IMG/VR virus record: IMGVR_UViG_3300014039_000311 | Location: 28,754 to 92,753 of that record | From: a virus | Taxonomy: Duplodnaviria > Caudoviricetes | Length of the DNA: 64,000 bases | Direction: 5' to 3' (one strand) | In this document: piece after piece, positions 9,391-63,976 of the stretch | Layout: every line of letters starts with the position of its first letter | How positions within the stretch are numbered: position 1 is the stretch's first letter | Program-made: the position numbers and the translations under genes | Notes under the pieces: generated by a model | Database searches by the model: none | What the model was told of the DNA's origin: nothing | What the model saw: the letters and a program-made list of their open reading frames with translations, nothing else

Positions 9391-9819
9391 ATGATAGCAT
9401 TAAACGAAAACGATTATAGAAACATCATTGAGAATTGCGTCAGAAGACTCATTAAAGAAGACATATACGATGATGAAGAAGAAATAACACCTTTTGATGA
9501 CTATGCGCAAGATTATCCTAACGATGGCTTCAATGTCGATAATATGGATAGGGATGAACTTGCCGAATGGTGTCTTGAAAACGATTTCTTATATATTTAC
9601 AACCCATTCGGTAATTGGCGAATTTCTTGTGCAAACTCAAGTGAAATCCAAGAGGATATTGCGAACGATATACGGAACTGTGCCTATATTGAAAAAACTC
9701 ACGAAATGGATTGGCTGATTGAAAATAAGAAAAATCTATTCGGTTATCGTTCGCACATTGCGGTGTTTAAATTACATAACACCAAGGATGGTGATTATTA
9801 TGTAATTTACGAAGAATAA
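9391..9819 (+). CDS. putative head-packaged protein with LxE leader
   Basis: N-terminus MIALNENDYRNIIENCVRRLIKE. Confidence 0.5.
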   Translation: MIALNENDYRNIIENCVRRLIKEDIYDDEEEITPFDDYAQDYPNDGFNVDNMDRDELAEWCLENDFLYIYNPFGNWRISCANSSEIQEDIANDIRNCAYIEKTHEMDWLIENKKNLFGYRSHIAVFKLHNTKDGDYYVIYEE

Positions 9820-9844
9820 TGATTCTATTTATTAAAAATATATA

Positions 9845-10090
9845 ATGATTACGTTTATATTAGGTGTTTTTATAGGTATTATTCTTGTACCATTGTTAAT
9901 TTACCTTAGGGCAAGAAAATCAGGATGGGATGACAGTAATATATTTAATATATTTAGAGTCTTATGTCACTTGGCATTACATCCAAAGGATTTTATCTTA
10001 ATGCAATATAAGGATGGCACTAAGCCATTTTGGTATCTGACCAAGGATGAATTTTCAGAAATAGTAAAAACGAGACCAAAGATGAATTAA
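9845..10090 (+). CDS. small membrane protein
   Basis: N-terminal hydrophobic helix; TATTTAT at 9826-9832. Confidence 0.55.
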   Translation: MITFILGVFIGIILVPLLIYLRARKSGWDDSNIFNIFRVLCHLALHPKDFILMQYKDGTKPFWYLTKDEFSEIVKTRPKMN

Positions 10091-10128
10091 TATCGATTAA
10101 TAGCCCACTATCTAATGACGGTGAGCTA

Positions 10129-10503
10129 TTAATATTTTATTATTCTAACTAATTTATTCTGTTTTTTCATTACTTTTACAATGTGTTCAGTCCCTTTACT
10201 CTTACCATCCCAAAAAGCTATCAAAGCGTGTGAATATTCTGCCATAATATTATTTCTGACATACCCAGCAGACTTACCATATTTATCCCAATCGGCGGGA
10301 TAACAATAGAGTTGTAAATCGTGATTAATAGCAAACTGTTCTCCTAATCTATCAGCACCTCTTGCACCACCTGATACAATCTCCACTTTATGTGTTTTTA
10401 ACTTATTGGATAATATTTTTAGACATTTATCCTCCAACAATTTATAGTCGTTAAAATCACGTCCTCCTGCTATTATAACTTTGAATATTTTTTTCTCTTT
10501 CAT
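10129..10503 (-). CDS. YspA/SLOG (DUF2493-like) nucleotide-binding protein
   Basis: IIAGGRDF, IVSGGARGAD, AG.VRN, IAFWDGKSKGT motifs. Confidence 0.8.
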   Translation of the reverse strand: MKEKKIFKVIIAGGRDFNDYKLLEDKCLKILSNKLKTHKVEIVSGGARGADRLGEQFAINHDLQLYCYPADWDKYGKSAGYVRNNIMAEYSHALIAFWDGKSKGTEHIVKVMKKQNKLVRIIKY

Positions 10504-10513
10504 ATTAATCGTC

Positions 10514-11470: not shown

Positions 11471-11473
11471 CTG

Positions 11474-12890: not shown

Positions 12891-14396
12891 TTACGAAATG
12901 TATTTTGAATTAGTATAGGTATATTCGATAAAACCGCAATCCCATATTCGGTAATAATCATTATCTTTTCTGTTAATTAACGTTATAATTTCAGTTTTAT
13001 TTATCCTTTTTCCATGACCATTAGTATATGTATAGTCAACATCGAGTACTTTATTGAAAATAAACCCGTTCTTAGTATATAAATTATTATCCTTATCGTA
13101 TTCCCATCTTCGGTCAATAAAAGCTTTTATGCTCTTGCAATTATATTCGTTGGTAAAAAATTTTATTATCTTTGAAAAGGTATCTTGAACTGTGTAATGG
13201 ATATCGTTAGCAAACCTATCAAGTATCCATTCTTCATCATGACGCCTACTGAGTGATATTACACTCATTAATTTTTCCTGATAAAACGCTCCTAAATGGA
13301 TATCTGCGTCGCAATAACCTTGAATATTGTTATAATTCATAAATTTTTCTGCCTCATCATTTCTAAGCTCTCTGATACTGCATTCTCTCGTCTCAATTTT
13401 AGGTAATGATTTATCAAGTTCTAGTAAACGACTTATCTTACTAAACAAGGCTTCTTTATGAAAGATATACTCGTCCTCGAAAATATGAAATAATTTAATT
13501 CCTTTCTCTTCACATTTATTCTTCTTGGAAAGGTGGTAGTATTTATCTTTATTAAACTGCTCAGAATGCCATCGTAGTCCATTATATTCAAATGCAATAT
13601 GCTTCTGAGGCAAATAAATATCGAGTTCCTTTCCATCGAGAATAGAATGATTTCTTCGTTCGATTGATAAGTCAGATTTACCCTTGATGAAGTCAACAAT
13701 TTCGTCTTCGGCATCCGATCTATGATTACCACATTTAGGGCATCCTTTTCCTTGTAATAATGCATCTGGACAAATTTGAAATTCTCCATGCTTTATACCC
13801 TTATTGTTACACTTATTGCATATTAAGGTAATCTTTGTTTGACTTGATATATATTTAACTTTGCTAAAGTCAAGCCACTCACAATCGGATATTTTCTTAA
13901 GCTTATCAATAAACGTCTCAGTCGTATAGGTCTGCGATTTTATCTGCCTTTGTCTTCCAATTTCAGGATGGGTGCCGCCTTTCAAATGCACGATAGGCTC
14001 CTGCCAAAAGACCCCATACTCTGTACCATCTGGACGTAAATCGTGTGAAATTATCTTGACTTTGATGTGCATACCTTTATATTCAACTTCAGAATAATCT
14101 AAATTTTCTCCTTTGTGTACCTCCTTAAATCTTTTAATTATTTTGTCTCGTGAAAATAGCTTGCCTTTTGATATACGTAACCCTTTTTTATCAGGATGAC
14201 ATTGTCCCTTTAAATGGTTCGACGGTGTTTGCCAAAACTCACCGTATTCGACACCATTTGGGCTCTTGTCGTGATCTATTATTTTTACTGGTGTACGATT
14301 ATTAATATATTCAACTTCAGAATAATCTAAATTTTCTCCTTTGTGAATATGCTTTGCCTTTAAAATAAAGTTATTTTTTAATATATTTCTATCCAT
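12891..14396 (-). CDS. Hef-like homing endonuclease (repeat DNA-binding units + PD-(D/E)xK/Vsr-like nuclease + GNAT-like tail)
   Basis: ELDIYLP...AFEYNGLRWH, IFEDE; tail RFA...DRRW...IWDCG; immediately downstream of capsid gene. Confidence 0.7.
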   Translation of the reverse strand: MDRNILKNNFILKAKHIHKGENLDYSEVEYINNRTPVKIIDHDKSPNGVEYGEFWQTPSNHLKGQCHPDKKGLRISKGKLFSRDKIIKRFKEVHKGENLDYSEVEYKGMHIKVKIISHDLRPDGTEYGVFWQEPIVHLKGGTHPEIGRQRQIKSQTYTTETFIDKLKKISDCEWLDFSKVKYISSQTKITLICNKCNNKGIKHGEFQICPDALLQGKGCPKCGNHRSDAEDEIVDFIKGKSDLSIERRNHSILDGKELDIYLPQKHIAFEYNGLRWHSEQFNKDKYYHLSKKNKCEEKGIKLFHIFEDEYIFHKEALFSKISRLLELDKSLPKIETRECSIRELRNDEAEKFMNYNNIQGYCDADIHLGAFYQEKLMSVISLSRRHDEEWILDRFANDIHYTVQDTFSKIIKFFTNEYNCKSIKAFIDRRWEYDKDNNLYTKNGFIFNKVLDVDYTYTNGHGKRINKTEIITLINRKDNDYYRIWDCGFIEYTYTNSKYIS

Positions 14397-14537: not shown

Positions 14538-16475
14538 TTATCTCAATTCATTAGGGTTCCAATAAACCAAACCGTCGACCTTTATTGCTCCATAGTATCT
14601 ATTATTTACTAACTTCTTGGCATAACGGGTACATATACCCTTTACAGGTGCGAAGTTAAATGGATTATACATTGTAGGTGTTAATGCCATCGGAATATAT
14701 GGGGCATATATGTAGCCAGTGTCGAGCAAGCTTGTACCGTGGTGTCCCATAATCAGTGACCAATGAGGTGCGTATGGGTCGACAATCACCTGATAACGTC
14801 CTTGCAAAGAACCAATCTTCTCAATACCCATATTGTATTGGTCACTCTCGGCAGATGCATCTGTCACGTGGAAATACTCAAGGTCATTCAACACAGCAGA
14901 AATCTCAGCAGAAACTACGATGAAGTTTGCACCACCACGTAATGTAGCCTTCTGGATCTGTGCAGAAATTTGGTTAATCTTAGTCATCAAAGTCTGGTTC
15001 CAATCCTTCTGTGTATAGACAGTCGATGTGGTAGCCAAACGTTGCCATCCGTTATAGTCCCAACGTGCTTGCCAAGGAGCTGCCTTACGTAAATCACGAA
15101 GAATCTCACGGTCAATCTCGGCTGCGATTTGCTCAGAAAGGATTGCTGTCAACTCAGCTTCGGCATCGATATTATGGAAAGCGGACACGTCTTGTGCAAG
15201 TTCAGGTGACCAAGTAGCTCTCAACTTTCTTTCCTCGACAGATACTGTTTCTGAAGTAAGTTGGAATGAAACCTCACCCATCTCAGTCTCCAATTCGAGC
15301 GAATCGTACTGTGCCCAAGCAATCTGGAATAACTCGTCGGCCAACAATGCGTTATCATCATCCTTGTCAGTCAAGTCAGCGACCTTTGTAGGATCGATAC
15401 CGATATAACCATTAATTGTCTTACCTTGTTTCTTGCAAGGCTTTGTCAAGTCAAGTTCGATATACATCTTACCCTTGCCATCACAAATGTTTGCCTTACC
15501 CTTATCGTCGTTATAATTAACCAACTGGTCACCATACTTCTGAGTTACGAAACGGAAAGGAATTGATTCACCTTTTTTGAACGATGTGAAATCATCACCA
15601 CCATCAATATCTTTTGTAACAATAACCTTCATTGAAGCTGTAAATGCTTCGCTATCCATTTCATTACCGTCAGGACCGGTCAAACGACCTGCATTATAAG
15701 AAGAGAAACCTCCTACTTGAAGCAAAAGGCTGCTCAAAGAGTTATCCATGCTATTCAAAGGCAAATGTGCCACATCCTCTACTGAATGATAAGCACCATC
15801 TGCACCGATTTCAACGACACTTGCAGTACCTACCTTAATAGTTACACGACCTTTAGAGTTGTCGAACAAGAAATCATTGTAGAACAAGTCGTACAAAGTC
15901 TTCTTCATATAGGTTGTAACCTTTGGTGTTGTGTGATCCTTGTCAGTCTGTACTGGTTCTACAACCTCATCAGGGAGACCATAACGACCGTATGATTCGA
16001 ATGAACGTCTTGTCTTATCATTGGCATCGAAACTAGAACCATCATAGAAACGGTTTTGTCTCTGATAACCTTGGAGACCTACGTGGCGTCCAGTATCACC
16101 GTCTGTAATCTTAGTAGCGTCTTTGAAATCCCAATCTCTCTCTGATGTAACAGGCTTGATGAAGAACAACTTTCCGATAGGAAGGTTCATTGCCTGTACT
16201 GATACGATGTCGTTTGCAAGCAATTTTGAGAACACACGACGAATAAGAGGGAATACAACTGTCTCGAATGAACCTGAGTTATCAGCGGTAGTTGCCTCGT
16301 AAATCAAGTGTTTAGCCTGACTTTCGTAAAGAGTTGCGATACTCTCCTTAATATGTCCTTGCAAACCGTCGAGAAGACCAAGGTTTTCCCAACGTTTCTG
16401 AATATCTTCTCTGATTTTCTTTTGTGCGTTGAGTTCAATGTTGCCAACCGCACCACTAGTTAATAATTCACGCAT
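14538..16475 (-). CDS. major capsid protein, T4 gp23-like
   Basis: VSVQAMNLPIG.LF, RKLRATWSPELAQD, AEAELTAILSEQIAAEIDREI, YAPYIP, TRYA motifs. Confidence 0.95.
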   Translation of the reverse strand: MRELLTSGAVGNIELNAQKKIREDIQKRWENLGLLDGLQGHIKESIATLYESQAKHLIYEATTADNSGSFETVVFPLIRRVFSKLLANDIVSVQAMNLPIGKLFFIKPVTSERDWDFKDATKITDGDTGRHVGLQGYQRQNRFYDGSSFDANDKTRRSFESYGRYGLPDEVVEPVQTDKDHTTPKVTTYMKKTLYDLFYNDFLFDNSKGRVTIKVGTASVVEIGADGAYHSVEDVAHLPLNSMDNSLSSLLLQVGGFSSYNAGRLTGPDGNEMDSEAFTASMKVIVTKDIDGGDDFTSFKKGESIPFRFVTQKYGDQLVNYNDDKGKANICDGKGKMYIELDLTKPCKKQGKTINGYIGIDPTKVADLTDKDDDNALLADELFQIAWAQYDSLELETEMGEVSFQLTSETVSVEERKLRATWSPELAQDVSAFHNIDAEAELTAILSEQIAAEIDREILRDLRKAAPWQARWDYNGWQRLATTSTVYTQKDWNQTLMTKINQISAQIQKATLRGGANFIVVSAEISAVLNDLEYFHVTDASAESDQYNMGIEKIGSLQGRYQVIVDPYAPHWSLIMGHHGTSLLDTGYIYAPYIPMALTPTMYNPFNFAPVKGICTRYAKKLVNNRYYGAIKVDGLVYWNPNELR

Positions 16476-16550: not shown

Positions 16551-17900
16551 TTATTGTACTTTGTCAAGTCTTCTCATAAAATCAAGGGTTTCTGACAAAT
16601 CATCTGACTGATACATCGGAGTCTCGACAGTGTGTTTTGTCGCCTCTGACAATTGTGCATTAAGAACATTGTCTACGTTCTGAGACTGATGCGTACGATG
16701 TAACTCCTCGGTAATAGTCTTGTACAAAGAATTACTCTCGTTGCAAGTCTTTACGTCGTTGAAACGTTTAATAATGGATTGTTTTTCTTCGGCAGTTGTC
16801 GCATTTTCTTTAAGCAATTTAACGATGTTACCAAGGCTTTGGTTAATTACGACGGCTTCCTGCAAACGTTTCTGTAATTCTGGCAATAATGACTTAAGTT
16901 CCTTGTTCTCACGGAAAATCTCATTCGCCTTTCTCTTGATACCTTCCATCTGTGCCTCACTATAAGAGTTATCTGCTGTTCCGTGAATTTGCTTTCCTCC
17001 TGCGTGGGCATTACGTCCTTTAGCAGCCTTTGAATTAGTGTTGGTATGAACCATACCATTTCCACGATTGTATGCACCTTGTTCTTGGGTTGTCATTGCT
17101 TCATTGACATCTTGATCGAACGGTGCAGTGTCACCTTTTCCTGGGAATGGTTTCTCAGTACCTGTAGGTACACCACCATCCATTGAGTAGGTTTTGCTTG
17201 TATCAGCAGGTTCATGATTATCAGGGGTTGTCATTGCTGTCTTTTTCTGATAATTGTCGGTATAACCTACGTTGCCATGATTTTCAGCTTCACCCAATGA
17301 ATCGTCTACATCGTCGGCACAAGCATCATCGTCTAGATCAACTTGGATAATATATTCCTTGTTGGTCTCATCGTCAGTCAATTCGATGTTTCCATCATCA
17401 TTCTTAACAACACGCACGCCATCTTCAGGCTTCATTACTTTCAGAACTTTGATGACCTCGTCGGCATCCATTCCTGTCAAGTCATATTCTCCGTCCTCAC
17501 CTTTGTAATCCTCAAGACCACTCCATACATCATCGTCAGTGTCATCAGTAGTGTCATCTGCTGCATTTGCGTCTGCATCATCAGCAATGGCATCACCATC
17601 GTCACTCGTACCTTCTTCAGCGTCATCAGTTGCTGTAACATCATCATCAGCTACAGTAACATCGTCAGTAGAAGCATCGTCGTCTTTCGTATCATCGACA
17701 GGTTTAGTATCGTCGTCTGTGACTTCTTCCTCTTCGAAAGAATTTGCGTCCTCAGATATGATTTGTCTTAAATTTCCTTTTACCTCGTCTTCAAGCAATG
17801 ATTTGATTGTAGACTCAGTAATACCCTTCAACTGTTTTTCAAGGGTTTCCTTATCTTCGAGTAAATTTCTTACATATTCACTTCGGATATTCTTTGCCAT
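16551..17900 (-). CDS. prohead core/scaffolding protein, gp22-like
   Basis: Between protease and capsid genes; very acidic, coiled-coil C-terminus, many L/I/V-x-E sites. Confidence 0.75.
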   Translation of the reverse strand: MAKNIRSEYVRNLLEDKETLEKQLKGITESTIKSLLEDEVKGNLRQIISEDANSFEEEEVTDDDTKPVDDTKDDDASTDDVTVADDDVTATDDAEEGTSDDGDAIADDADANAADDTTDDTDDDVWSGLEDYKGEDGEYDLTGMDADEVIKVLKVMKPEDGVRVVKNDDGNIELTDDETNKEYIIQVDLDDDACADDVDDSLGEAENHGNVGYTDNYQKKTAMTTPDNHEPADTSKTYSMDGGVPTGTEKPFPGKGDTAPFDQDVNEAMTTQEQGAYNRGNGMVHTNTNSKAAKGRNAHAGGKQIHGTADNSYSEAQMEGIKRKANEIFRENKELKSLLPELQKRLQEAVVINQSLGNIVKLLKENATTAEEKQSIIKRFNDVKTCNESNSLYKTITEELHRTHQSQNVDNVLNAQLSEATKHTVETPMYQSDDLSETLDFMRRLDKVQ

Positions 17901-17983: not shown

Positions 17984-18709
17984 TCAAATACCGAGTATTT
18001 GATTTATTTTATTTATTTTTTCATTAATTATAGGCTTCTTTTCCTTGGTTTTATCATCCTCAACGAATGGCTGCAATTCTTCTTCACTTTGCCTTATCCA
18101 CGCATTAGGTGTACTTGGTTCCATTACCACGTCCCAACATATTAATTCAAAGTCATCATCTACGACGACTTTTCCACCTGGTATTTGTTTCACGGAACCT
18201 ACACCTCGTGACGATACTCCTATTAGATAACCAGATAAAAGCATATTTGCCACCATATCACCACTTGTAGAACAAATACCATATTGTTTATAACCAGGAG
18301 ATAAATGGAGTTCCATTGTGCCTACCAAAGTATGATTATCCCAATGCAATTCCAATATGTTATGTGATACGTCATGTCCTGATAAACTTGAGCTGCTTGG
18401 ATGGTCAAGACTTCCTATTGCGCAACGTTTATTCACTCTGTCATTTATGTATTTGTCGACTTCACGTTTTAATATTGCTTCAGGATAAATACGATTGTTT
18501 GCGTTAGGAATACCGAACTTTTGGAAAACTGCGGATACGACAAAGTGGTCTGGACAAACGAATTTATGTCCAGACTCAATGTCTTCACGTATTTGTTTAA
18601 TTGAATCTTGTTCTGTTATAATATGACCGTCATTCTCAATGAGCAAACCAGTACCTGTTTGCCCTTTCTTAATTTCGGTCAATTGAGATGTATATTGTTC
18701 ACTATTCAT
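17984..18709 (-). CDS. prohead protease, T4 gp21-like
   Basis: NANNRIYP, GSLDHP, VSH, GVSSRGVGS, WDVV.EPSTPNA motifs. Confidence 0.9.
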   Translation of the reverse strand: MNSEQYTSQLTEIKKGQTGTGLLIENDGHIITEQDSIKQIREDIESGHKFVCPDHFVVSAVFQKFGIPNANNRIYPEAILKREVDKYINDRVNKRCAIGSLDHPSSSSLSGHDVSHNILELHWDNHTLVGTMELHLSPGYKQYGICSTSGDMVANMLLSGYLIGVSSRGVGSVKQIPGGKVVVDDDFELICWDVVMEPSTPNAWIRQSEEELQPFVEDDKTKEKKPIINEKINKINQILGI

Positions 18710-19298: not shown

Positions 19299-20234
19299 TT
19301 ATAATGTTTCTTGGATTTTGATGAAATTTAATATATCGTCAATTAATGTTTTCTCATTATATCTTTTCTCGTTTAAAGTAGTTTTGATGTTTTGCCACTG
19401 TTCCTTGTCTTCCTCCGAAGCATTGGTAATTGCCTCATCGATACTATTAATGGTTTCAGTTTTATAATCCTCGAACAAGGCAGATTTATCAGTCTTGGAT
19501 GAAACAATACTTTCGACCAACTTAACCTCATCATCAGTCAGTTTATCATATTTTTCTGTAATCTCAGACAATGTCTGTTCGTAATTCTCTTCAATGTTAT
19601 TAACGTTACTCTTACCTTTCCTTTCAAAATTTTCAATCAGATTATCCTTTACCTTGTTGAATTCATCAACGTTATTGAATGTCTTCTTATTAGTCAAAAT
19701 AAATTCAATCTCTTCATACAATTTAATAGTGTCTTCATCGATATCCAACAGTTTATTAACATTGGAATTTGTTTCGACTAAATCTATCAACTTGTCGTTT
19801 GCCTTTTTAATTGCTTTTTTATTAGTATTAACATCTGAAATACATTCGATGATACCATCAACATACTTTTCCGGATTACTTACATTCTTTTTATTACATA
19901 TGCTGTTGTATACGTCAAATTGTTCTTTCAAGACTTTATCATTTTTGATTAAATTACTTACCTCGTTGATAAATTTTTTGCCGACACGGGTTTTCATATT
20001 CTTTAGAAGACTATCTTCAAAGATGTGATAACATATTCCGAAGTTGCGGTTCTTGCCATATAATTTATCCCTATCAGTGTTTTCAATGCAATATAAGGTG
20101 TTTGCTTTGTTATATACATCATTGGCTCTCTTACGATAGTCTTCGCCCTCGTTTATCTTATTCTTGGAGTAGCATTCAATGGCTTGTTCCATCAAGGATT
20201 TGCCTTCATTATATAATTTATCTAACTTATCCAT
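19299..20234 (-). CDS. hypothetical head-cluster protein
   Basis: 311-aa helical ORF between portal and protease; TATTTAT upstream. Confidence 0.6.
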   Translation of the reverse strand: MDKLDKLYNEGKSLMEQAIECYSKNKINEGEDYRKRANDVYNKANTLYCIENTDRDKLYGKNRNFGICYHIFEDSLLKNMKTRVGKKFINEVSNLIKNDKVLKEQFDVYNSICNKKNVSNPEKYVDGIIECISDVNTNKKAIKKANDKLIDLVETNSNVNKLLDIDEDTIKLYEEIEFILTNKKTFNNVDEFNKVKDNLIENFERKGKSNVNNIEENYEQTLSEITEKYDKLTDDEVKLVESIVSSKTDKSALFEDYKTETINSIDEAITNASEEDKEQWQNIKTTLNEKRYNEKTLIDDILNFIKIQETL

Positions 20235-20266: not shown

Positions 20267-22354
20267 TTATTTCTTGCCTTTGTCATCGAAATTTTTCAAA
20301 TCTTTTGAAATCTCTTCAAGTTCCTCATTCAATGATAAATTCTTAAGATAAATGTCGTTAATGTCATCATTTTTCTTTTCTTTATGGGTTGATGCGACTT
20401 CGACGAGACGATTAATTAAGAAATGACTGTAATTCTCGGAACGTTTCAAGGCATTATGATTAATCGCCCTTTTCTTTTCCTCGATTTTAGACTTCATCCC
20501 ATGTAATATCATTTCGCCCAAATTAGGCATTGTGCCTGCATCGGATTGATCATTAGCTTCTCCGCCACCTTCATTAGGCGCACCATTGTCTTCATTGGCA
20601 GTATCTTCCATTGACATTTCACCCTCTTCACCAGTTTCCATTCCATCATCAGACATATCATCGCCGAAACTCATATCGCCTGTTCCGATAGGCATACCAC
20701 CACCTCCACCACCAGGGGCAGCACCTCCTTCTTCGCCATTAGCGTCAAGAGTATCCTGATATTCGGCACCAGGCTCACCATAGATATTATCGACAGGATC
20801 AAACAAGCCAGTTTTTTTAATAATTTGTGTCGTTTTCTGTAACTCCGCCGCCAATGCCGTTTCAAGACGTATTTCTTCAAGATTCCTCTGAATTTCCTTA
20901 TCAGACCATTTCATTATGTTTTTCCAAGCCCACGTCATAGAGGTCAAAGGTATACCTCCACCAGGGTCAGAAACTGCATCTTTCGCCGTGGTAATACGCT
21001 TTGCGACGTTCTCTATTTCCAACATCTCGGCTTGTGAAGAAGGATTATTCATTGTCAGAGTGAAGTTATTCAATTCATCAAAGAAGCCTAACAGACAAAG
21101 ATGAATAATGGCTATTTTATTTAATTCCATTATTAACGCTTGCTGTACTCTATTAACTGTTCTAGTGAATCTCACATCCAATAACGATAGATTTTTACCA
21201 TCACCTTGTGCATCATCAAAGTTAAGGAAAGACTTAGGAATTCTTAAAGCTGTCAATACCTTGTTTTGAATATACTTAATATCATCCATTGCAGTTAAGT
21301 TTTGACCTGCCGAAAGAGTCTCAATAGGATTTGGTGCGCTGTCATCTCTTACAGGAATAAAGAAATCTTCTAGATTATTCATTACGTTTTTCCTTAAATC
21401 AATCTGTCCGGTCATAGGGTCGATAATAGGTGTTCTCTTGAAATTATCTGCAATCTGTTGTACATAAGCGGGAACATCGGCCTCATCAATTGCACCGACA
21501 TTGATTTTAAACACACGTCTCTCCACTGACCGGTCCAAGCGATAGACAAGCATCATATCCTCCATCATGCTAAGCATCCTGAAATGCCTTCTTGCCTTAT
21601 TTAATATTGAAACACCATAAGGCAAAAATTGCGAATCATACAATAATCGGAAGTGTGCAATTTGGAATTCCCTATACGGAATATATTCGGATTGGCCAAC
21701 CCATACAAATTTAGTCTTATCAATATTTTTCTCATTTACATTATTAAGATTATATCCCACGGTCGATGATGCATAAGGGCAATCCATTCCATTCTCATAT
21801 CTTTCGATTTCATAGACAGGTAATTGTTTCCATCCCAATACGCCCTTTGATTGGTCGACATTTAATAACATGAAGGTATTACCGTATTTGCACATTGAAC
21901 GGCAAATCATTGGTAATATAATATTAATGTTTAACCTATTGGTAAATAAATCTTGTAGAATTGACTTAATACGTTCTGACTTGGAAAATACATTAACAAT
22001 AAAACCTTTATCATTTGCAGTACAGCTCTCTTCCGCATAGGCATCAAGAGCAGCACCAATCTCAGGAAAAGCATCCATAAGATCTGAATCCCTATAACTT
22101 AATTTTAGCTCATTTAAACCTGATAATGATTGATTCGTAATATCATAATGTGCTTTCACCCATTGTCTTCCAAGTAATTTCTGTTGTTTGGCTTGCAACA
22201 ATTTCATCTGGTAATCAGATTTACTTGTCGCAGTATCAATGACATTATTGTCACTATGTATATTATATGTATTGCTAGTTGACAACGATGGTGAAACCGA
22301 TGCGCCGGTTAGCACTTGTTGTAACCTTTGAAATACAGTTTTTTCCTTTGACAT
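20267..22354 (-). CDS. portal protein, T4 gp20-like
   Basis: MMEDMMLVYRLDRSVERRVFKINVG, EDFFIPVR, IETLSAGQNL, DIKYIQNK motifs. Confidence 0.92.
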   Translation of the reverse strand: MSKEKTVFQRLQQVLTGASVSPSLSTSNTYNIHSDNNVIDTATSKSDYQMKLLQAKQQKLLGRQWVKAHYDITNQSLSGLNELKLSYRDSDLMDAFPEIGAALDAYAEESCTANDKGFIVNVFSKSERIKSILQDLFTNRLNINIILPMICRSMCKYGNTFMLLNVDQSKGVLGWKQLPVYEIERYENGMDCPYASSTVGYNLNNVNEKNIDKTKFVWVGQSEYIPYREFQIAHFRLLYDSQFLPYGVSILNKARRHFRMLSMMEDMMLVYRLDRSVERRVFKINVGAIDEADVPAYVQQIADNFKRTPIIDPMTGQIDLRKNVMNNLEDFFIPVRDDSAPNPIETLSAGQNLTAMDDIKYIQNKVLTALRIPKSFLNFDDAQGDGKNLSLLDVRFTRTVNRVQQALIMELNKIAIIHLCLLGFFDELNNFTLTMNNPSSQAEMLEIENVAKRITTAKDAVSDPGGGIPLTSMTWAWKNIMKWSDKEIQRNLEEIRLETALAAELQKTTQIIKKTGLFDPVDNIYGEPGAEYQDTLDANGEEGGAAPGGGGGGMPIGTGDMSFGDDMSDDGMETGEEGEMSMEDTANEDNGAPNEGGGEANDQSDAGTMPNLGEMILHGMKSKIEEKKRAINHNALKRSENYSHFLINRLVEVASTHKEKKNDDINDIYLKNLSLNEELEEISKDLKNFDDKGKK

Positions 22355-49974: not shown

Positions 49975-49983
49975 TATTATTCT

Positions 49984-50757: not shown

Positions 50758-50773
50758 CAACCGTAAAACAAAA

Positions 50774-50845: not shown

Positions 50846-50885
50846 TAATATTAATTTAAATAACATTTTAAAAACAATTAATTTT

Positions 50886-52070: not shown

Positions 52071-52089
52071 AATAAATTGAATAAAATAA

Positions 52090-52125
52090 TATATGACGGG
52101 CAAGGTTTGTTCGTTATATATTTAT
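52090..52125 (+). terminator. metK terminator hairpin overlapping a TATTTAT late promoter (52119-52125)
   Basis: atatgacgggcaa-ggt-ttgttcgttatat stem with G-U pairs, then T-rich tract. Confidence 0.55.
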
Positions 52126-52148
52126 TTAATATCAAATAATTTAAAAGT

Positions 52149-52907
52149 ATGACTAATAAAGAAATAAACGAATATGCTTTCTTCAAAAAAGGGTTAAGAC
52201 TAATAAACGAGGCAGGAATTAATCGTATACTTAGTCATGGTAAATATGGTTTTATAATAATTTCAGCAAACCGTAGTGAAATTTCAAGCAGTAATCCTCA
52301 TAATGATTTGACTGGAAAATACGAACAGTGGTGTAATGAAAATAAAATTGATAACCCGTCAGATTTCGAGGTAATGAAGCAATGGCTTTCACAGCGTAAT
52401 AAACAAGCTGAAGCCGATTTAAAGGATGAATTGAAGAAATCTCCATTCGCATATACCCCGGTATTCGGAGGTTATCACGGAAGTGATGATGTTACTGATA
52501 GCTTTGAGCCGTCATACATTGTATACTGTCACGGTAAACATTATGCGACCGACTATTATCCATTCGAGAAATTGTTCAAATTCGCATTACATTTGTGTAA
52601 TGAATATCAGCAAGACAGCGTTTATATTCAAGCGCCTGACGAAGCTCCTATATGGGTTAACGGAGAAGGTGTAAAAATAAACAAAACGTCCACTAAAAAA
52701 TTTAAAATAAATGACTTCTCACAAACATATTATACAACTGTAAATAGAAGTAAACGAGATACCAAGGAAATGGGTCTTGACACTAAGCCACAAAGATTCA
52801 CGGCAGATATTCAGTTTGAAAGTAAAATGTATACTGTACCGGGTCCAAGTACTTACTTTGATAGAATGAAAAGAGAAACACTCGGAGAGGTATTTTTAAA
52901 TAATTAA
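52149..52907 (+). CDS. SAM lyase-like protein (T3 gp0.3 SAMase/DUF3293-like) with IxE leader
   Basis: FIIISANR, GGYHG, FEPSYIV, LCNEYQQDSVYI parallel the recalled T3 SAMase motifs VSAFR, GCYRE, EEKTV, CNEWEQDCVLV. Confidence 0.6.
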   Translation: MTNKEINEYAFFKKGLRLINEAGINRILSHGKYGFIIISANRSEISSSNPHNDLTGKYEQWCNENKIDNPSDFEVMKQWLSQRNKQAEADLKDELKKSPFAYTPVFGGYHGSDDVTDSFEPSYIVYCHGKHYATDYYPFEKLFKFALHLCNEYQQDSVYIQAPDEAPIWVNGEGVKINKTSTKKFKINDFSQTYYTTVNRSKRDTKEMGLDTKPQRFTADIQFESKMYTVPGPSTYFDRMKRETLGEVFLNN

Positions 52908-52930
52908 ATATAAATTTTAAAACAAAAAAT

Positions 52931-53773
52931 ATGGCAACTATATTAAACGAAAATAAGCTAAAGAGTATCATCCGTGAAAGTATTAACAAAATGCTCAATG
53001 AAAGTACCCTTAACCGCATCGAAGAATATATCAAGAATGAGGAATGCGCAATAATAACAGCGTGGCGAGACACATTACAAAATGTGACAAAAGAAACCTT
53101 TACACCTAAACACATTACTCACGAAAAAGGGCATCGAGGAAACAAGATTGTAACTGATGCAATGTTTAATGTCGGTGACAAATTTAGTACCGAAGAAAAA
53201 AAGTTTTATAATCGTGAATTAAAGGCTAAGTTACTTAAATATGGTTATGGCGTAACGCAGGTTCGAGGCACATACCGTGAAAGTGGCATCGAAGGGCAAG
53301 AAGAATCCTTATTTGTCGTCAATCGTAATAATGACCCTAATTTCAAGGATGTCTTATTTAAACTTTCTGAATATTATAATCAAGATTCTTTCTTGTATTC
53401 GCCAAAAGGAACAACAGAGGGTTATTTGATAGGGACTAATACATATGATTATCCTGGTTATAAGAATACTGTTCGCAGTGGACAATTTCGTAAAAATATA
53501 CAATCGATGTTTATGAGTCGAATAGGTAATAAAGGCTTCAGCTTTACTGATGGTAAAGAAATAGATAAGACTGATCCTGATAGGTTTAATAAATTGGATA
53601 ATGGCGACAATAATTATGAAATCGATAAACCCATGACATTCAAAGATAGAAAGCAAGAACGAATAAAAGGACTTAGTAATGAAAGTATTGAACGTTTATT
53701 GCGTATAGAAACTTATGAAGCGGCATCAATCAATGGCAAACATGCTATCTGCATATGTGCAAGAGGTCTATAA
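52931..53773 (+). CDS. second SAM lyase-like paralog with LxE leader
   Basis: IITAWR, GTYRE, QEESLFV, SEYYNQDSFLY; leader MATILNENKLKSIIRESINKMLNE. Confidence 0.6.
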   Translation: MATILNENKLKSIIRESINKMLNESTLNRIEEYIKNEECAIITAWRDTLQNVTKETFTPKHITHEKGHRGNKIVTDAMFNVGDKFSTEEKKFYNRELKAKLLKYGYGVTQVRGTYRESGIEGQEESLFVVNRNNDPNFKDVLFKLSEYYNQDSFLYSPKGTTEGYLIGTNTYDYPGYKNTVRSGQFRKNIQSMFMSRIGNKGFSFTDGKEIDKTDPDRFNKLDNGDNNYEIDKPMTFKDRKQERIKGLSNESIERLLRIETYEAASINGKHAICICARGL

Positions 53774-54664: not shown

Positions 54665-54838
54665 TTAACGATAAAGATTATAATGTTGTCACAAAAAAGT
54701 ACTACCTTTGTGACAACATTTTATATATAAGATGACATATGAGTAATAATAAAGGCAATGGTGCATTAGCTCTCATGCTAAAAGCTGCGTGCGCTGATGG
54801 CAATGCAATGGAATTATTAAATAAAGAGTAAATTGCCA

Positions 54839-55831
54839 ATGACTGCAAGAAAAACTACGAGGCAATTTATCTTAGAGGCAAAAAAAGTACATGGAAATAA
54901 GTATAATTATTCAAAGACAAAATATATTAACGCAAAAGTCAAAGTCTGTATTATATGCCCCGAACACGGAGAATTTTGGCAGACACCGTATAAACATTTA
55001 AATGGGCACGGATGCCACAAATGCTGTAAGACCGGTATTAAGTACACCACAAAAGAATTTAAAGATAAAGTGAATGAGATACATAATGGAGAGATATATG
55101 TCGCTAATGACGCACTCTATGTTAATTCTCACACGAATATAAAAATGATATGCCCTAAACATGGTGAATTTTGGACGAAGCCTAATTACATTCTTAGTCG
55201 TCATGGCTGTCCGAAATGTGGTATTAAAAAGGTAAAGGAGAAAATGAGTTTCACAATTGAAGACTTTATTAAAAAGGCTAAAGGCATTCATAAAGACGAA
55301 TATGATTATCAATTAAGTGAATACAATGGATACGATATGCCTATTAAGATTATTTGTCACAAAGCAGATAAAAATGGAAAAGAGCACGGAGTATTTTTAC
55401 AGTCACCGCATTCACATTTATCAGGGCATGGCTGTCCTTTATGTAAAATGAGCAATTTGGAACGGAAAATATATTGCTTATTAAAAGAATATAATATAAA
55501 ATTTGAATATGAGAAAAATTTTAAATGGTTAGGCTTACAGACATTAGACTTTTACCTACCTGATTATAATGTCGCTATTGAATGTCAAGGGATACAACAT
55601 TTTGAACCTTGCAATTTCGGCAGTACTATAAAAACGCCTCAAGAAATGTTTGATTATGTAAGGGAATGCGATAATAGAAAATATAAATTATGTAACGAAA
55701 ATGGTGTAAGATTGTTATATTACAAACAAGGTAAATTACCTTCATGGGTGATAAATGCAGATGAATATTATTCGAATAAAAAAAGATTAATTAAATCAAT
55801 AATAACAAATGGAAAATATAAAGATATTTAA
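54839..55831 (+). CDS. free-standing endonuclease (3 zinc-ribbon repeats + Vsr/DUF559-like domain)
   Basis: CPEHGEFWQTP..HL.GHGC repeats; TLDFYLPDYNVAIECQGIQH. Confidence 0.75.
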   Translation: MTARKTTRQFILEAKKVHGNKYNYSKTKYINAKVKVCIICPEHGEFWQTPYKHLNGHGCHKCCKTGIKYTTKEFKDKVNEIHNGEIYVANDALYVNSHTNIKMICPKHGEFWTKPNYILSRHGCPKCGIKKVKEKMSFTIEDFIKKAKGIHKDEYDYQLSEYNGYDMPIKIICHKADKNGKEHGVFLQSPHSHLSGHGCPLCKMSNLERKIYCLLKEYNIKFEYEKNFKWLGLQTLDFYLPDYNVAIECQGIQHFEPCNFGSTIKTPQEMFDYVRECDNRKYKLCNENGVRLLYYKQGKLPSWVINADEYYSNKKRLIKSIITNGKYKDI

Positions 55832-56986: not shown

Positions 56987-57523
56987 TTATAAACCTATTC
57001 GATGCTTGAAATCCTTAATACACTCCTCTTTATTGTAATTTGCATCACGTCCATTTCCAGGATCGTAATATCTTACCTTATTGAGGAATTTAGTATCCTC
57101 TTCATCATCATTACCTAATGCAATCTTTCTGAAACGGTCGAACGCATTACCCTTGGTTGGGATATAACCTCTGAATTCTTTTCCGTCCCAATACACGACG
57201 AAAAATATGGCAGCTTCCCAATCTCCACCGAATTGACCTTGTATAAATGGAACACCATCAGCAGTTTTAATGTCTCCTATTATATCGAAATTTTCTTCAT
57301 CGTGTTCGATTTTATTTAAATCGTTTTTCAAATGTTTCGGGGCGTTCGAATTGTACCTCATTGCCCCAATAAATTGACCGGCTGTGATTTTCTTATTGTC
57401 GTATTTATTTGGGTTATCACTTTTACGACAATGTTTCTTATATACCTTACCCATATTAGCTGTGAATTCATCTATCGAAATCTTTGGGGCAGTCCTACTA
57501 TTTTGTGGATAATCAACATCCAT
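56987..57523 (-). CDS. hypothetical protein (an in-frame LxE leader lies upstream beyond a TGA)
   Basis: GGDWE...VVYWDGKEFRGYIP motif; upstream frame MLINLNEKSLRSIIRE...K*PN from ATG 57607. Confidence 0.6.
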   Translation of the reverse strand: MDVDYPQNSRTAPKISIDEFTANMGKVYKKHCRKSDNPNKYDNKKITAGQFIGAMRYNSNAPKHLKNDLNKIEHDEENFDIIGDIKTADGVPFIQGQFGGDWEAAIFFVVYWDGKEFRGYIPTKGNAFDRFRKIALGNDDEEDTKFLNKVRYYDPGNGRDANYNKEECIKDFKHRIGL

Positions 57524-57710
57524 ATTCGGTCATTTATATGTAATCGTTTTAGCTATAGCTTCTCTTATTATACTTCTTAAACTTTTTTCATTTAAGTTTA
57601 TTAACATCTTATTTAACTTATTTTATAATAATAAATATGGTGATTTCATTATAAAATATTACTTTTGCAATTGATAAAAAGTTTGTTTAAATTTTAAATT
57701 TACGAGTCTC

Positions 57711-59249: not shown

Positions 59250-59459
59250 TTATTTATTTGCGAAATATGCCTTTAAAGCCGCCTGTGCCTTTTCTTTTGA
59301 AGCATATTTCGCTTTCCAATCACCATCTTTCTCGTTATCGCCTTTCCCCTTGTGACCACGGATTTTCCATACACCATTTTCCTTATGGATAACATTACTT
59401 AATTCTTCCCTTATAAGGTCTCTTAATTTATTTTCATCTATTTTAATTGACATCATCAT
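59250..59459 (-). CDS. small putative head-packaged protein
   Basis: IKIDENKLRDLIREEL leader; basic C-terminus. Confidence 0.55.
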   Translation of the reverse strand: MMMSIKIDENKLRDLIREELSNVIHKENGVWKIRGHKGKGDNEKDGDWKAKYASKEKAQAALKAYFANK

Positions 59460-60087: not shown

Positions 60088-60402
60088 ATGGCAAGGCGTA
60101 AAATTATCAAAGAGACAATCGATAGATTAAAGTCAGATTTCTACGATGTTGACAATGAATATTTAAGGCAATATTCAGATGAAATTCGTTATGAATTTTC
60201 ATCAAATGGAAGAATGAAAAAAACGAAACGTAGAAGTTTCGCATGGGTAGTAAAGAACGCATTGAATGAAATCAAGACCGACTTCGAAAAATATACGGAT
60301 GGTAATCCCACGATGACTTTCGAAGACCTTAATATCTCATTGAATGGTGAATTGGTCGATGAATGTTTCAAAAAGTACTGTGATGAATCCTTTAATATTT
60401 GA
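60088..60402 (+). CDS. hypothetical protein
   Basis: TACCTTTG promoter 60057-60064. Confidence 0.55.
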   Translation: MARRKIIKETIDRLKSDFYDVDNEYLRQYSDEIRYEFSSNGRMKKTKRRSFAWVVKNALNEIKTDFEKYTDGNPTMTFEDLNISLNGELVDECFKKYCDESFNI

Positions 60403-61840
60403 AACCGTTCTTAGGGGCATTTATTACCTGACCAATTCCTTGACTATATGAAGTCCTCATCTTACCGAAAGTTATTGGTATAAGATATTTTACACCCAAT
60501 TTTGTCAATTGGTAACATATATCACTCAACGTTGCGCCTCCTGATATATTATCATCAAAAATAACTACGATACTGTCATCGGTATTCCCCAATTCGTCCT
60601 TCGCCACCTTATCGTTAATGGAGAAATAATTACGTAAGGCCATTCGACTATCGTTTCCTAATTTTTTAATTTGGAAATTTGCAGGCTGCCACATACAGAT
60701 ATCATATGGCTTTAGAGGAATACCGTCTGTCATATTATAATCTTTCAGTATCTGTAATACTCTTTGTGTTCTACCTTCGATTGAAGGTCCTTTTGAATAC
60801 TTAATTGCTTCGGCCACCTTTTTTAAATGAGGTTTATGATATTTATTCGCAATGGTATCGTAGTATTCAGCAACGACAGTTATATTCTTGACTGCATCCT
60901 GATATTCAATATATAAGTCGTGTAATCTCTTGATTGATTTTAAAGTGGGTTCACCATATTTTTCTGGATTACTAAGTCTTGATTGCACATAGTTTAATTG
61001 ATACAAAAGGGTGCCTGTTTGTTTACGATTTTCAATCTTAGTAAATTCATTCGCTTTATCAATTTCAGCCTTAACAGATTCTAATCTGGACATACGATTC
61101 AAGTCATTGTCTACTGCTTGCATATGACTACCTCCATTACCACCTTTTTTCCAACGGTTTGAATCATAGTAGTCTTGATTTTTGGCAATAAAATCATCAT
61201 CTTTCTCAATATTGGTAGTATCTTTCCTTAAAAGGTTACTATTGATTATCGAAACCGGTAGTCCATCTATGGTATGGCTATTCTTTACGATACGATTAGC
61301 CATCTCGGTATTAAAATTACTGCTCGAAGGAACAGGATATACGTATACTCGTGAAAATGTAATGTCTTTATTATTACCAATGAATTGACTTGCACGATAA
61401 TTTACGACGGCATCCACCTTATCCAAGAATTGCTGCATAAAGTTCCTAAATTCAGTGTCCTGCATTTCCAAGTCATATTCGGTATCACCTAATTTTATTC
61501 TTGTTTCTTCATTATTGAATTTGCGCTTAAAATAATGCATTACTTCAGTTCCATTAATATCAGTGATGTTATACGACGTGATACCTCCCTTTAGTTTAAC
61601 CTCATAGGTCGATTGACCGTTTCCATTATCCATTAGATTTGTCTTCAGCATATCAAGAGATGTCATGTTCCCATGATTTCTTGTAAGACCTCCTGTATTG
61701 TTTCTTTTGTAGGTCAGATTCGCAATATTTTTGTTCTTGCCGTTCGATACACCATTGATGAAGACATCCTCAGCTATGAGATTTATGTCATTTATATATC
61801 TATAATATACATCTTCGTTTATCTTGATAGTTTTCACCAT
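60392..61840 (-). CDS. type I phosphoribosyltransferase-domain protein with IxE leader
   Basis: VYPVPSSS and VVIFDDNISGGATL PRPP-binding loop; leader MVKTIKINED...LIAE. Confidence 0.65.
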   Translation of the reverse strand: MVKTIKINEDVYYRYINDINLIAEDVFINGVSNGKNKNIANLTYKRNNTGGLTRNHGNMTSLDMLKTNLMDNGNGQSTYEVKLKGGITSYNITDINGTEVMHYFKRKFNNEETRIKLGDTEYDLEMQDTEFRNFMQQFLDKVDAVVNYRASQFIGNNKDITFSRVYVYPVPSSSNFNTEMANRIVKNSHTIDGLPVSIINSNLLRKDTTNIEKDDDFIAKNQDYYDSNRWKKGGNGGSHMQAVDNDLNRMSRLESVKAEIDKANEFTKIENRKQTGTLLYQLNYVQSRLSNPEKYGEPTLKSIKRLHDLYIEYQDAVKNITVVAEYYDTIANKYHKPHLKKVAEAIKYSKGPSIEGRTQRVLQILKDYNMTDGIPLKPYDICMWQPANFQIKKLGNDSRMALRNYFSINDKVAKDELGNTDDSIVVIFDDNISGGATLSDICYQLTKLGVKYLIPITFGKMRTSYSQGIGQVINAPKNGFKY

Positions 61841-61940
61841 TTACAGTTCTTAGCCAATGTAATTATAAATAGTAGACAAAAATCCTTAGGCATTTTAAAG
61901 ATGCCTAAGGAAACGAATATATAATACGAGAAAGTCTTTT

Positions 61941-62687
61941 TTAATCAAGTACTATGATTGATAACGATTTCATTTCAGGTGCGTTACGATTTGTTCCTTG
62001 ACTTGGTATAACAGCATCAGGTGAACTTGCAGCATCTTTCAATTGTTTTACTAGATCCTCGAATGAAGAAGAATCTTTGCCATCGGCATTTACGACATAT
62101 CTTACGCCTGTTTGCCCTTGCGAATTTGAAACATCATAACTTGCACTGTAAGACCATCCGTTGCGCTCAAGGATATCGTTGAAATCATAAAAATCCAATG
62201 AGGCGTTATCTTCGGACTCATCCAATTCATTGTCATTTCCATAATTCCAATCCTTGAAGTCCTCCCTTATATTTCCTTTGCGAGTTTTACCTTCAATAAG
62301 GCATTCATCGCCATTACTCCAATTGGCATCATCGTCAGGATCGATACCTAATCTTTTGAGACCTCTTAGAGTAATTATCTTTATCTTTTTAGGGTCAAGT
62401 TCATTGTCAAGTAAATCATCGGTAAAATAGTCTTTCTTGAATCTCCTTAAGTCCTCAGGATCGTATCCATTATAATCCCAAGCGTTTATTATCTTACCCG
62501 TTAATTTTGAGACTGCGAAATAATTGTAACTGCCTTCGTCTGGTGTATTATTAAATCCTTCAAGACATAAGTTCTTAACCTTATTGCAACGAGGATCAAC
62601 GCCATTACGTATCATACACTCCTTCATTAATTCATTTGTCCTCTGAGAGATATATTCTTTGATTTCTTTGCGATTAAAATTCTGCAT
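61941..62687 (-). CDS. putative head-packaged multidomain protein
   Basis: Several L/I-x-E sites separating short domains; TATTTAT on minus at 62713-62719. Confidence 0.5.
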   Translation of the reverse strand: MQNFNRKEIKEYISQRTNELMKECMIRNGVDPRCNKVKNLCLEGFNNTPDEGSYNYFAVSKLTGKIINAWDYNGYDPEDLRRFKKDYFTDDLLDNELDPKKIKIITLRGLKRLGIDPDDDANWSNGDECLIEGKTRKGNIREDFKDWNYGNDNELDESEDNASLDFYDFNDILERNGWSYSASYDVSNSQGQTGVRYVVNADGKDSSSFEDLVKQLKDAASSPDAVIPSQGTNRNAPEMKSLSIIVLD

Positions 62688-62830
62688 AATTTCGATATAA
62701 ATATTATATTATATAAATATAACAGTATTTTTCAATTTAATGTTTTTGCTTCATTTTAATATGTCTTTAAAATGAAGCAATTTTATTAAAATTACAAATT
62801 ATTTATGAATATAAATAATTCAAAAAGATA

Positions 62831-63976
62831 ATGATAATAAAACTTTCGAGAAAACAGCTTGATGAGGTCAGATATATAGACGCAGCCAATCGGGATATGA
62901 CATCACGGATGGATAGACCTTATCGTAAAGATTGGCAAGAAAAATATAACCAACAGCCAATCACGAATAACGATAAAATCAGAGTGTACCATGGATGCTC
63001 ATTGAAAACTGCATTGGATATATGCAAGAACGGAACGAGTGGAAAAGAATATCATCCACGTACTTACTCGTATGAGAACGGAATGAATCCATTGGGCATC
63101 TTCGTAACTGTTAATTTTGACAAAGCCAAGGATTTTGGCTATGACCCAAAGGCGATGTGTATTCTTGAATTTACAGTAAAAGCCTCTGATTTGGAAGCAC
63201 CTGTATGGAATAACTCAGATTCGTATTTTGGCCAAGGGTCAAACCCTCAGCCATTTAGAGATGCAGATGAAAGAAAGAAGCAGAAACAGAAATATGATGA
63301 CGATGCAAGAAATTTTCCTGATGAGACATATTGGGATTATAATAAGAAAAAAGATGTTAAATTAGACCGTAGCTATATTCGTAACTCTGACAAACCCGCA
63401 ATGGCTAAAAGTGTATTCGACAACTATGAACACCAAGCGTTATTTATGGGCGACCTTAATCCGAACATGATAAAATATGTATGGGTCTGTGAGAATGGTC
63501 AGAATCAATATCAACGATATACTGAAAAAGACTTTTTAATAAAATATAATACCGATGATAATGGCAAAAAGAAATTAAGACTTCGTAAGGATAAGCTGTT
63601 TCTACCGGATGAAAGTGTCAAATCTTGGGATGAGGTAATTAATCGAATTGTAAAACGAGATGAAGGAAGTCCTTGGGCAATGAGTAAGGAAGAGGTAATT
63701 AACGTATTCAAAGAATACAATATAATGGATAATCCAAACTCAAGCTTTGCATTGGATTACATTAAGCAAATATTTTGGCCTAGACAAATAATCCAATTGT
63801 ACGGTAAGGATTTCTTTAATAAGAATTTTAATCACCTTGAACAAGACTTTAACGAAAACCTTACGTATAATGATAGTTTTATATTGACCGAAGGCTCTTG
63901 GGGATATGAACTTAATCAAAATGACTCTACCCTTGATACTATTAACAGATGGTATGGTCAATTACCCACAGGCTGA
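62831..63976 (+). CDS. ART-like domain protein with leader, truncated by IS insertion
   Basis: IRVYHGCS...GIFVT...AKDFG...ILEF ART-like core; last residues QLPTG* come from the IS. Confidence 0.55.
   Translation: MIIKLSRKQLDEVRYIDAANRDMTSRMDRPYRKDWQEKYNQQPITNNDKIRVYHGCSLKTALDICKNGTSGKEYHPRTYSYENGMNPLGIFVTVNFDKAKDFGYDPKAMCILEFTVKASDLEAPVWNNSDSYFGQGSNPQPFRDADERKKQKQKYDDDARNFPDETYWDYNKKKDVKLDRSYIRNSDKPAMAKSVFDNYEHQALFMGDLNPNMIKYVWVCENGQNQYQRYTEKDFLIKYNTDDNGKKKLRLRKDKLFLPDESVKSWDEVINRIVKRDEGSPWAMSKEEVINVFKEYNIMDNPNSSFALDYIKQIFWPRQIIQLYGKDFFNKNFNHLEQDFNENLTYNDSFILTEGSWGYELNQNDSTLDTINRWYGQLPTG

Follow-up and report, generated by a model that had tools for sequence, protein, structure and literature searches.

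A recurrent helical leader on unrelated, putatively late proteins of an uncultured giant phage: a possible cleavable capsid-targeting propeptide

Why would nine probably late genes of one phage, encoding proteins with otherwise unrelated bodies, open with a common helical peptide of ~25 residues? The question is raised by a stretch of 64,000 nt (the window), which corresponds to bases 28754–92753 of a 92.7-kb virus contig with a GC content of 33% (IMG/VR record IMGVR_UViG_3300014039_000311). A preliminary description of the window had proposed a family of about 15 late genes whose [ILV]-x-E-rich leaders load diverse enzymes into the phage head. Here we delimit the leader family in the contig (genes A, C–F and H–K), follow it through databases and related phages, and weigh whether it could be a propeptide comparable to the capsid-targeting sequence (CTS) of T4.

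When aligned (alignment A1), the nine leaders follow the pattern hydrophobic-x-[LI]-[NTSD]-E-x-x-[LY]-x-x-[IL]-I-x-E-x-[IV]. A hidden Markov model (HMM) built from A1 and run on all 92.7 kb of the contig in six-frame translation scored the nine members at 29.7–46.9 bits, with the next best match at 9.3 bits. As this test is circular, each member was left out in turn; the omitted member then scored 8.9–23.6 bits and was the best non-training match, and the maxima of 20 shuffled proteomes lay at 6–9 bits and never exceeded 9.4 bits. A second, semi-independent (broad) HMM built from database matches regained seven of the nine leaders at 10–29 bits: F (49227) at 29.0, H (52931) at 23.1, I (57607) and A (9391) at 21.4 each, J (59459) at 16.2, C (28876) at 12.5 and E (48585) at 10.2. 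It gave K (61840) 3.8 bits and did not regain D (41045). By the scores of the two models, A, F, H, I and J are strong members, C and E are moderate and D and K are divergent. In all nine, the leader starts no more than 12 residues from the first start codon, and the six-frame A1 search found no copy inside real genes of the contig, so that the N-terminal enrichment implied by the preliminary description was borne out.

The bodies behind the leaders share no similarity with one another, and an all-versus-all comparison of the first 32 residues of 104 open reading frames (ORFs) recovered only the leader family, one separate pair and true paralogues. Where two leaders have an identical residue, the same codon is used in 50% of pairs compared to 45% expected from codon usage, which argues for selection on the peptide and not on a DNA element, and by which a DNA-level cassette or recombination site was ruled out. 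A Sec/Tat-type signal peptide was ruled out as well, as the leader logo alternates charged and hydrophobic residues throughout and has no uninterrupted hydrophobic core.

The motif TATTTAT (sense strand) peaks 30–38 nt upstream of start codons in this phage, including those of the capsid, scaffold, protease, portal and terminase genes. Of the nine leader genes, six are preceded by a copy of their own at 30–36 nt, compared to 19 of 96 other genes (p = 0.005); counting operons, the number rises to eight of nine (p = 6e-5), two of them being second genes of such operons. The earlier remark that most of the leader genes sit behind this motif was therefore accurate, and the common motif and spacing are sequence evidence that the leader genes are probably co-regulated with the head genes.

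A common N-terminal leader on unrelated bodies is thus upheld, for nine genes in the whole contig instead of about 15. Among the examples listed in the preliminary description, nine were confirmed, and those at 25073, 52149 and 62831, about a third by our reckoning, are not members. The ORF at 25073 gave no HMM score; that at 52149 is a paralogue of 52931 in which the alignment begins only at the last third of the leader; and that at 62831 has a different short N-terminus, IIKL[ST]RKQL.E. The latter, followed by ... YID, is common to two unrelated TATTTAT-motif genes, 62831–63976 (+) and L002 2312–2836 (+, upstream of the window), and may be a truncated leader variant or a second small tag family. 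Also upstream of the window, a 75-codon frame at contig positions 22007–22234 (L002 4008–4235, +) opens with ITINENNLRHI... and scores 9.5 bits with the broad HMM. None of ATG, GTG and TTG stands before the motif, where a TAG is directly followed by ATT; the frame may be a remnant, or a tenth family member that starts unusually.

The window encodes a T4-type head module that was recognized by Pfam, comprising a gp23 capsid, an S77/gp21 protease and a gp20 portal (Table 1). The source is taken to be a giant phage because IMG/VR relatives with a 92% identical protease span 237–279 kb at an estimated 65–76% completeness. Among cultured phages, Flavobacterium phage immuto and Microcystis phage Mel-JY01 come closest by protease, at only ~42% identity. 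Samples that contain related or motif-bearing sequences are from human gut, horse faeces and reindeer. Of the five [LI]-x-E sites in the capsid protein, four fall in residues 1–60 and one in the other 585 residues. The LIYE-A site named in the preliminary description is present, and sites kept in orthologues (65–97% identity) are I-x-E at 42–45, LYE at 49–51 and I-x-E|A at 58–61. Alignment with mature T4 gp23 (gp23*) from the PDB placed the capsid maturation site somewhere in residues 45–61, a range that the alignment does not narrow to an exact site. The mature capsid contains one [LI]-x-E compared to 4.1 expected (p = 0.07). At the protease N-terminus, L-x-E, LIE and I-x-E are kept across orthologues (60–97% identity for capsid and protease together). 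The leader HMMs found nothing above noise in the scaffold, the capsid propeptide or the protease N-terminus; the scaffold-like protein had no match in family-library searches, and its stretch ITES...LLEDE is not conserved among orthologues.

Two further TATTTAT-motif genes with no family match are rich in [LI]-x-E: 19299–20234 (−), which lies between portal and protease at the position equivalent to that of the T4 core genes 67 and 68 (18 sites versus 5.9 expected), and 31168–32694 (−; 10 versus 3.6 expected). Judged by sequence, both are candidate prohead-core proteins.

To place the leader in a wider family, A1 was searched as a profile against 1.84 billion representative proteins (E ≤ 0.001), which returned 163 clusters at 50% identity. 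The family consensus is MK(Q/K)TIKL(N/T)ESQLRNIIKESVKKVLKE, with a sharp logo, MK(Q/K)TIKL(N/T)E-S-QLRNIIKE-S-VKKVLKE, and three [LIV]-x-E triplets at 0, +9 and +17. Across 295 database copies, Glu is conserved in 69–82% at +9 and in 61–67% at +17, with Asp in only 1–4%; P3 is L/I/V, and P1′ after the first two Glu is Ser in 55–73%. A copy begins within the first 12 residues in 131 of 150 database proteins. Two or three copies are present in 125 of the 150, a share inflated by the E-value threshold, which favors multi-copy proteins, and 38 have a copy at the extreme C-end; multi-copy proteins are found on S77-bearing contigs too. A Met stands 6–10 residues before 31 of 168 internal copies, compared to 18 expected; with this excess, gene fusions or ORFs called too long may account for some of the internal copies. 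The motif is not covered by any Pfam family and shows only a sub-threshold resemblance to PF25734; a full-text search of the available literature for leader motif strings found no paper; and neither a two-copy database protein nor 49227–49622 gave a tblastn match among 50,697 GenBank phages.

Scans of IMG/VR with a degenerate DNA pattern and with single proteins found three extra contigs (84, 119 and 58 kb; 16–34% complete). Reached by the motif alone, all three encode S77 and have 4–10 leader matches each. Close relatives have 10–12 leader matches each. More distant relatives have 15 leader ORFs, the bodies of which are unlike anything on this contig except for one homologue of gene F (49227), a comparison that is incomplete because the contig is only part of a genome. 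The cargo sets thus vary between related phages while the leader is kept.

Gene H (52931–53773) offers a view of the leader in front of a recognizable fold. Its body matches Pfam PF23780 with 42.9 bits (cut-off 28), and its AlphaFold2 (AF2) model (predicted local distance difference test score, 88.8) contains a lower-confidence leader helix at residues 7–23, a break at residues 24–25 (E-S) and a confident body, with the helix break falling exactly at the [LI]-x-E-S junction. The top seven Foldseek matches are S-adenosylmethionine (SAM) lyases of T3 and other phages (probability 1.00; target TM-score 0.61–0.68 for the top five), the best being the T3 SAM lyase structures 8bb1 and 7ock plus two other phage SAM lyases. 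By Pfam and predicted fold, gene H encodes a SAM-lyase-family protein with putative SAM-cleaving activity. It has the family and fold of phage SAM lyases (T3 gp0.3-type, PF23780; PDB 8bb1, 7ock and 6zm9) but is about twice as long as the T3 enzyme, lies behind the late-promoter motif and carries the leader. The T3 enzyme itself is made early and is not known to be packaged.

The N-termini of 104 gene H homologues were then sorted, of which 96 have the domain anchor motif and eight were left unclassified as the anchor was not found. This leader is present in 47, a short MKKFNE...I-x-E leader resembling the T4 CTS MKTYQEFIAE in 11 and other extensions in 32, and six start just past the junction with no leader. 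In 89 of the 96 anchored homologues, the domain is preceded at constant spacing by an [LI]-x-E, mostly with Ser after it. A search for relatives of an MKKFNE-type SAM-lyase homologue found only distant loci. Judged from such leader swaps and from the changing cargo sets, the leader is portable between diverse bodies, as had been supposed.

Among the cargo enzymes named in the preliminary description, only the SAM-lyase-like protein combines a verified identity with the leader. The nucleotidyltransferase is 32755–34557 (−), a 600-aa late-motif protein with NTP_transf_2 at residues 389–473, two PHROG matches of unknown function and no leader, and the ORF at 25073, named as a HExxH peptidase, has neither a family match nor a leader. 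Gene K does bear the leader, and its body is possibly phosphoribosyltransferase-like, on a weak Atlas lead; this body has no [LI]-x-E compared to 3.0 expected (p = 0.035). Pfam and PHROGs assigned no family to the eight cargo bodies other than that of gene H. In gene I, a TGA (57530–57532) stands between the 25-codon leader and the 178-codon in-frame body where relatives have TGG (Trp); one relative has an intact 216-codon fusion and two are frameshifted further on, which marks the gene as dispensable and decaying in several genomes. A Met two codons past the TGA could start a leaderless product.

In T4, gp21 removes CTS propeptides of 10–20 residues from IPI, IPII, IPIII and Alt (Mullaney & Black 1996, as reviewed: PMC9026906, PMC5694885, PMC8442874). 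It cuts propeptides at several sites and trims the Alt C-terminus too, and a LIE-9 site has been noted in gp21 itself (PMC9026906). Substitution of Asp for the CTS Glu blocks processing, not targeting. Like the leader described here, the T4 CTS is a short N-terminal peptide common to unrelated, dispensable, often basic proteins, late in T4 and putatively late here, ends in L/I-x-E and is portable between bodies, and both phages have a gp21-type S77 protease, a gp23 capsid and a gp20 portal. Several leader bodies are small and basic, like the T4 internal proteins (PMC8442874). Propeptides with more than one site, and one at a C-terminus (in Alt), are known from T4 as well. The choice of Glu and not Asp, L/I/V at −2 and mostly Ser after the Glu fit the known specificity of gp21-type proteases.

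With a probability of about 0.5, we consider the leader to be a T4-like capsid-targeting propeptide that is longer and helical, has three sites and is removed by the head protease. Its build would be a short β-like start (T-I-K-L) followed by an amphipathic helix of ~20 residues, which would expose three in-register [LIV]-x-E sites, mostly with Ser after them. On the strength of the family and its N-terminal position, the TATTTAT context in common with the head genes, the T4-type head module, the conserved [LIV]-x-E sites and the portability of the leader, we infer the following course. Tagged proteins would be made late in infection alongside the head proteins, and the helix would dock them on the assembling prohead core. 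The S77 (gp21-type) protease would then cut after Glu and the leader pieces would leave the head, while the mature bodies would be retained in the capsid and pass with the DNA into the next host. Among the bodies so delivered would be several small basic proteins and one or more enzymes of the SAM-lyase fold. In relatives, the module placed between domains could act as a cleavable joint of polyproteins.

The likeness to known systems is partial. Compared to the T4 CTS, the leader has ~25 residues and is clearly helical instead of having 10, has three in-register sites instead of one, and resembles MKTYQEFIAE only in its MK start and I-x-E end; it heads at least nine genes per ~90 kb versus four in T4, and is used internally and C-terminally in relatives. 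The phiKZ-like giants (phiKZ, 201phi2-1 and SPN3US) have many head-internal proteins with multi-site propeptides cut by the prohead protease, and their paralogues keep identical N-termini for which a targeting role has been proposed. They differ in using another protease and motif (A/S/G-x-E), in propeptides that often exceed 100 residues and in having no single portable consensus peptide. Encapsulin cargo-loading peptides and P22 scaffold-domain fusions are also short portable peptides that load unrelated enzymes into an HK97-fold shell; these tags are usually C-terminal, are not known to be removed by a maturation protease, belong to another lineage and have no known sequence relation to the leader.

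Several observations weigh against a cleavable capsid-targeting propeptide. The leader has no significant sequence similarity to the T4 CTS, and [LI]-x-E is not significantly depleted in the cargo bodies (9 versus 10.4 expected). Single L-x-E sites mean little because L/I, E, K and N are abundant in a genome of 33% GC, and regular hydrophobic spacing is equally expected of any amphipathic or coiled-coil helix. The closest cultured phages, immuto and Mel-JY01, are without the leader; its profile gave one weak internal match in an immuto portal-region ORF and none in Mel-JY01. The co-occurrence of leader and S77 may reflect one lineage only, as the same lineage also shares ClpB-like and ClpX-like ATPases. 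Furthermore, a Paludibacteraceae metagenome-assembled genome (MAG) carries leader genes in a 2.5-kb low-GC island (29–31% GC within a chromosome region of 45–55%) beside an IS1595 transposase, with one N-terminal-leader gene and, convergent to it, one C-terminal-copy gene, and a MAG from horse faeces has a 41.6-kb phage-like contig encoding a protein with two internal copies. No S77 or gp23 was detectable in either MAG. Internal and C-terminal copies, together with these rare occurrences without T4-type head genes, are unforeseen by a simple N-terminal cargo-tag picture. A leader match was found in one of 301 genomes of the bacterial order of the Paludibacteraceae MAG, by which the motif is essentially viral with rare strays. 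The island lies on contig CAJOMJ010000014.1 (L024 8000–11400), where a NADAR-domain gene adjoins it and the region has a small ribosomal-protein-like gene.

Such points could be met by a general docking or oligomerization helix that binds a common partner or other leaders and needs neither packaging nor cutting, the strongest alternative, although less probable than capsid targeting. Candidate partners would be a coiled-coil bundle, a membrane surface or the AAA+ ATPases of the phage, and two Clp-type ATPase genes are indeed present in the window and in three relatives (G001, G004 and G007). The amphipathic 3–4 hydrophobic spacing suits this role, and the proteins with two or three copies (125 of 150) or a copy at the extreme C-end (38) suit multivalent binding or recognition at either terminus. 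The repeats, the terminal positions and the stray copies in contexts with no detectable T4 head genes are accounted for as well as, or better than, by capsid targeting. A docking helix would not, however, require three positions at which Asp is strictly avoided in favor of Glu, with L/I/V at −2 and mostly Ser next, nor an [LI]-x-E-S junction that is kept even with a replacement leader like the T4 CTS, nor a TATTTAT motif in common with head genes, and ClpX-type degrons are much shorter. Alternatively, the tagged proteins could be prohead-core or scaffold accessories that are degraded or expelled at maturation, so that the leader would be a head-assembly signal and not a mark of injected effectors. 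T4 gp22, gp67 and gp68 are cut to small fragments, several tagged proteins are small with no recognizable fold or family, and the [LI]-x-E-rich protein of 19299–20234 lies between portal and protease. This reading is nonetheless improbable given that the bodies are not enriched in [LI]-x-E and one is a well-folded SAM-lyase-type enzyme; cargo turnover between close relatives and a gene broken in three ways fit dispensable accessories better.

A resemblance without function, left by duplication, 5′-end shuffling, neighbor fusion or composition bias, is very improbable. Abundant I, L, K, N and E in an AT-rich genome would favor it, and the Met excess before internal copies hints at fusions or over-extended ORFs, but it is largely refuted by the shuffled proteomes, by codon use without DNA-level identity and by the sharp logo of 163 clusters with the motif in the first 12 residues of most proteins. 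It is equally far-fetched that the leader is the strand–helix start of a ribbon-helix-helix-like or antitoxin-like DNA-binding module. Two database members do resemble PF25734 (RelB_like_antitoxin) over the motif with 20.5–22.8 bits, and one occurrence lies in the mobile island of a bacterial genome; these scores are below the cut-off of 27, however, and no window protein matches the family, a second helix with its usual turn is lacking, the motif is joined to bodies that range from 42 to 456 residues, one of them an enzyme, and is repeated inside proteins, and matches in that bacterial order are confined to the single genome described above.

Returning to capsid targeting, a bolder version can be put forward tentatively: this gut-phage lineage might use one 25-residue address-and-cut cassette both as an N-terminal loading tag and as a polyprotein joint, with swappable cargo that includes a SAM lyase injected as a first-strike anti-defense. 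If so, the cassette would be a sequence signature from which the injected proteome of these phages could be predicted from metagenomes alone. A tag acting like the T4 CTS would mark, from sequence, the capsid-carried and injected proteins of an uncultured giant gut/rumen phage lineage, the hosts of which are probably Bacteroidales; such proteins are hard to find, and anti-defense functions are frequent among them. If a SAM lyase is indeed packaged, it would disarm SAM-dependent restriction or BREX-type systems in a novel manner, as the DNA enters the cell. Compared to its T4 counterpart, the tag has greater length and regularity and is reused far more widely; its apparent role as a polyprotein joint would extend the logic of head-protease processing, and capsids of the T4 type could be engineered with it as a naturally occurring, portable loading signal.

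Table 1 Leader genes and head-module genes of the window (positions are those of the window; A1, score with the A1 HMM; leave-one-out, score when omitted from training)
Feature	Coordinates	Strand	Size	Details
Leader gene A	9391–9819	+	142 aa	Leader 9391–9462; acidic body; A1 41.2 bits, leave-one-out 15.8; second in operon behind TATTTAT-headed gene 7944–9380
Leader gene C	28577–28876	−	99 aa	Leader 28811–28876; A1 40.3 bits, leave-one-out 8.9; own TATTTAT 34 nt upstream
Leader gene D	40659–41033	−	124 aa from ATG at 41033	Leader 40962–41033; A1 35.9 bits, leave-one-out 14.5
Leader gene E	48585–49175	+	196 aa	Motif from residue 12 (48618); basic body, pI 9.8; A1 29.7 bits, leave-one-out 10.9; TATTTAT 32 nt upstream
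Leader gene F	49227–49622	+	131 aa	Leader 49227–49310; Gly-rich basic body, pI 10.2; A1 43.4 bits, leave-one-out 23.6; cluster of 58 members, orthologues on many contigs up to 249 kb
Leader gene H	52931–53773	+	280 aa	Leader 52931–53002 ending LNE|S; SAM-lyase-fold body; second gene of TATTTAT operon, after leader-poor paralogue 52149–52907
Leader gene I	56987–57607	−		Leader ORF 57533–57607 (25 aa); in-frame body 56987–57523 (178 aa); A1 35.3 bits
Leader gene J	59250–59459	−	69 aa	Leader 59379–59459; 42-aa very basic body; A1 46.9 bits, leave-one-out 17.2; TATTTAT 30 nt upstream
Leader gene K	60392–61840	−	482 aa	Leader 61763–61840; divergent; A1 33.5 bits, leave-one-out 9.1
Major capsid protein, gp23 type	14538–16475	−		Pfam Gp23, 243 bits
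Scaffold-like acidic protein, gp22 position	16551–17900	−		11 [LI]-x-E sites versus 4.5 expected
Prohead protease, T4 gp21 type (Peptidase_S77), proposed processing enzyme	17984–18709	−		Pfam, 91.3 bits
Portal, T4 gp20 type	20267–22354	−		Pfam Portal_T4, 277 bits
Large terminase, T4-type	22416–24293

The Clp-type ATPases are a ClpB/ClpA-like double-AAA+ protein of 820 aa (41130–43592, −) and a ClpX-like single-AAA+ protein of 386 aa (34667–35827, +). In the region 50769–53773, metK (SAM synthetase, 50886–52070, three Pfam domains) is directly followed by the two SAM-lyase-like paralogues. Rfam gave no match in the whole window at the gathering threshold; a 301-base search upstream of metK gave a sub-threshold match to the SAM-II long-loop riboswitch (34 bits versus a gathering threshold of 44, E = 5.7e-5). 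A separate paralogue family with the N-terminal pattern ...HG.KYDYSKV.Y... (12891–14396, 28919–30388, 39197–39475, 54833–55831 and contig positions 4362–5762) gave the top scores in the N-terminal all-versus-all comparison. Its members are spread over structural and replication regions and, by sequence, look like mobile endonuclease-type genes.

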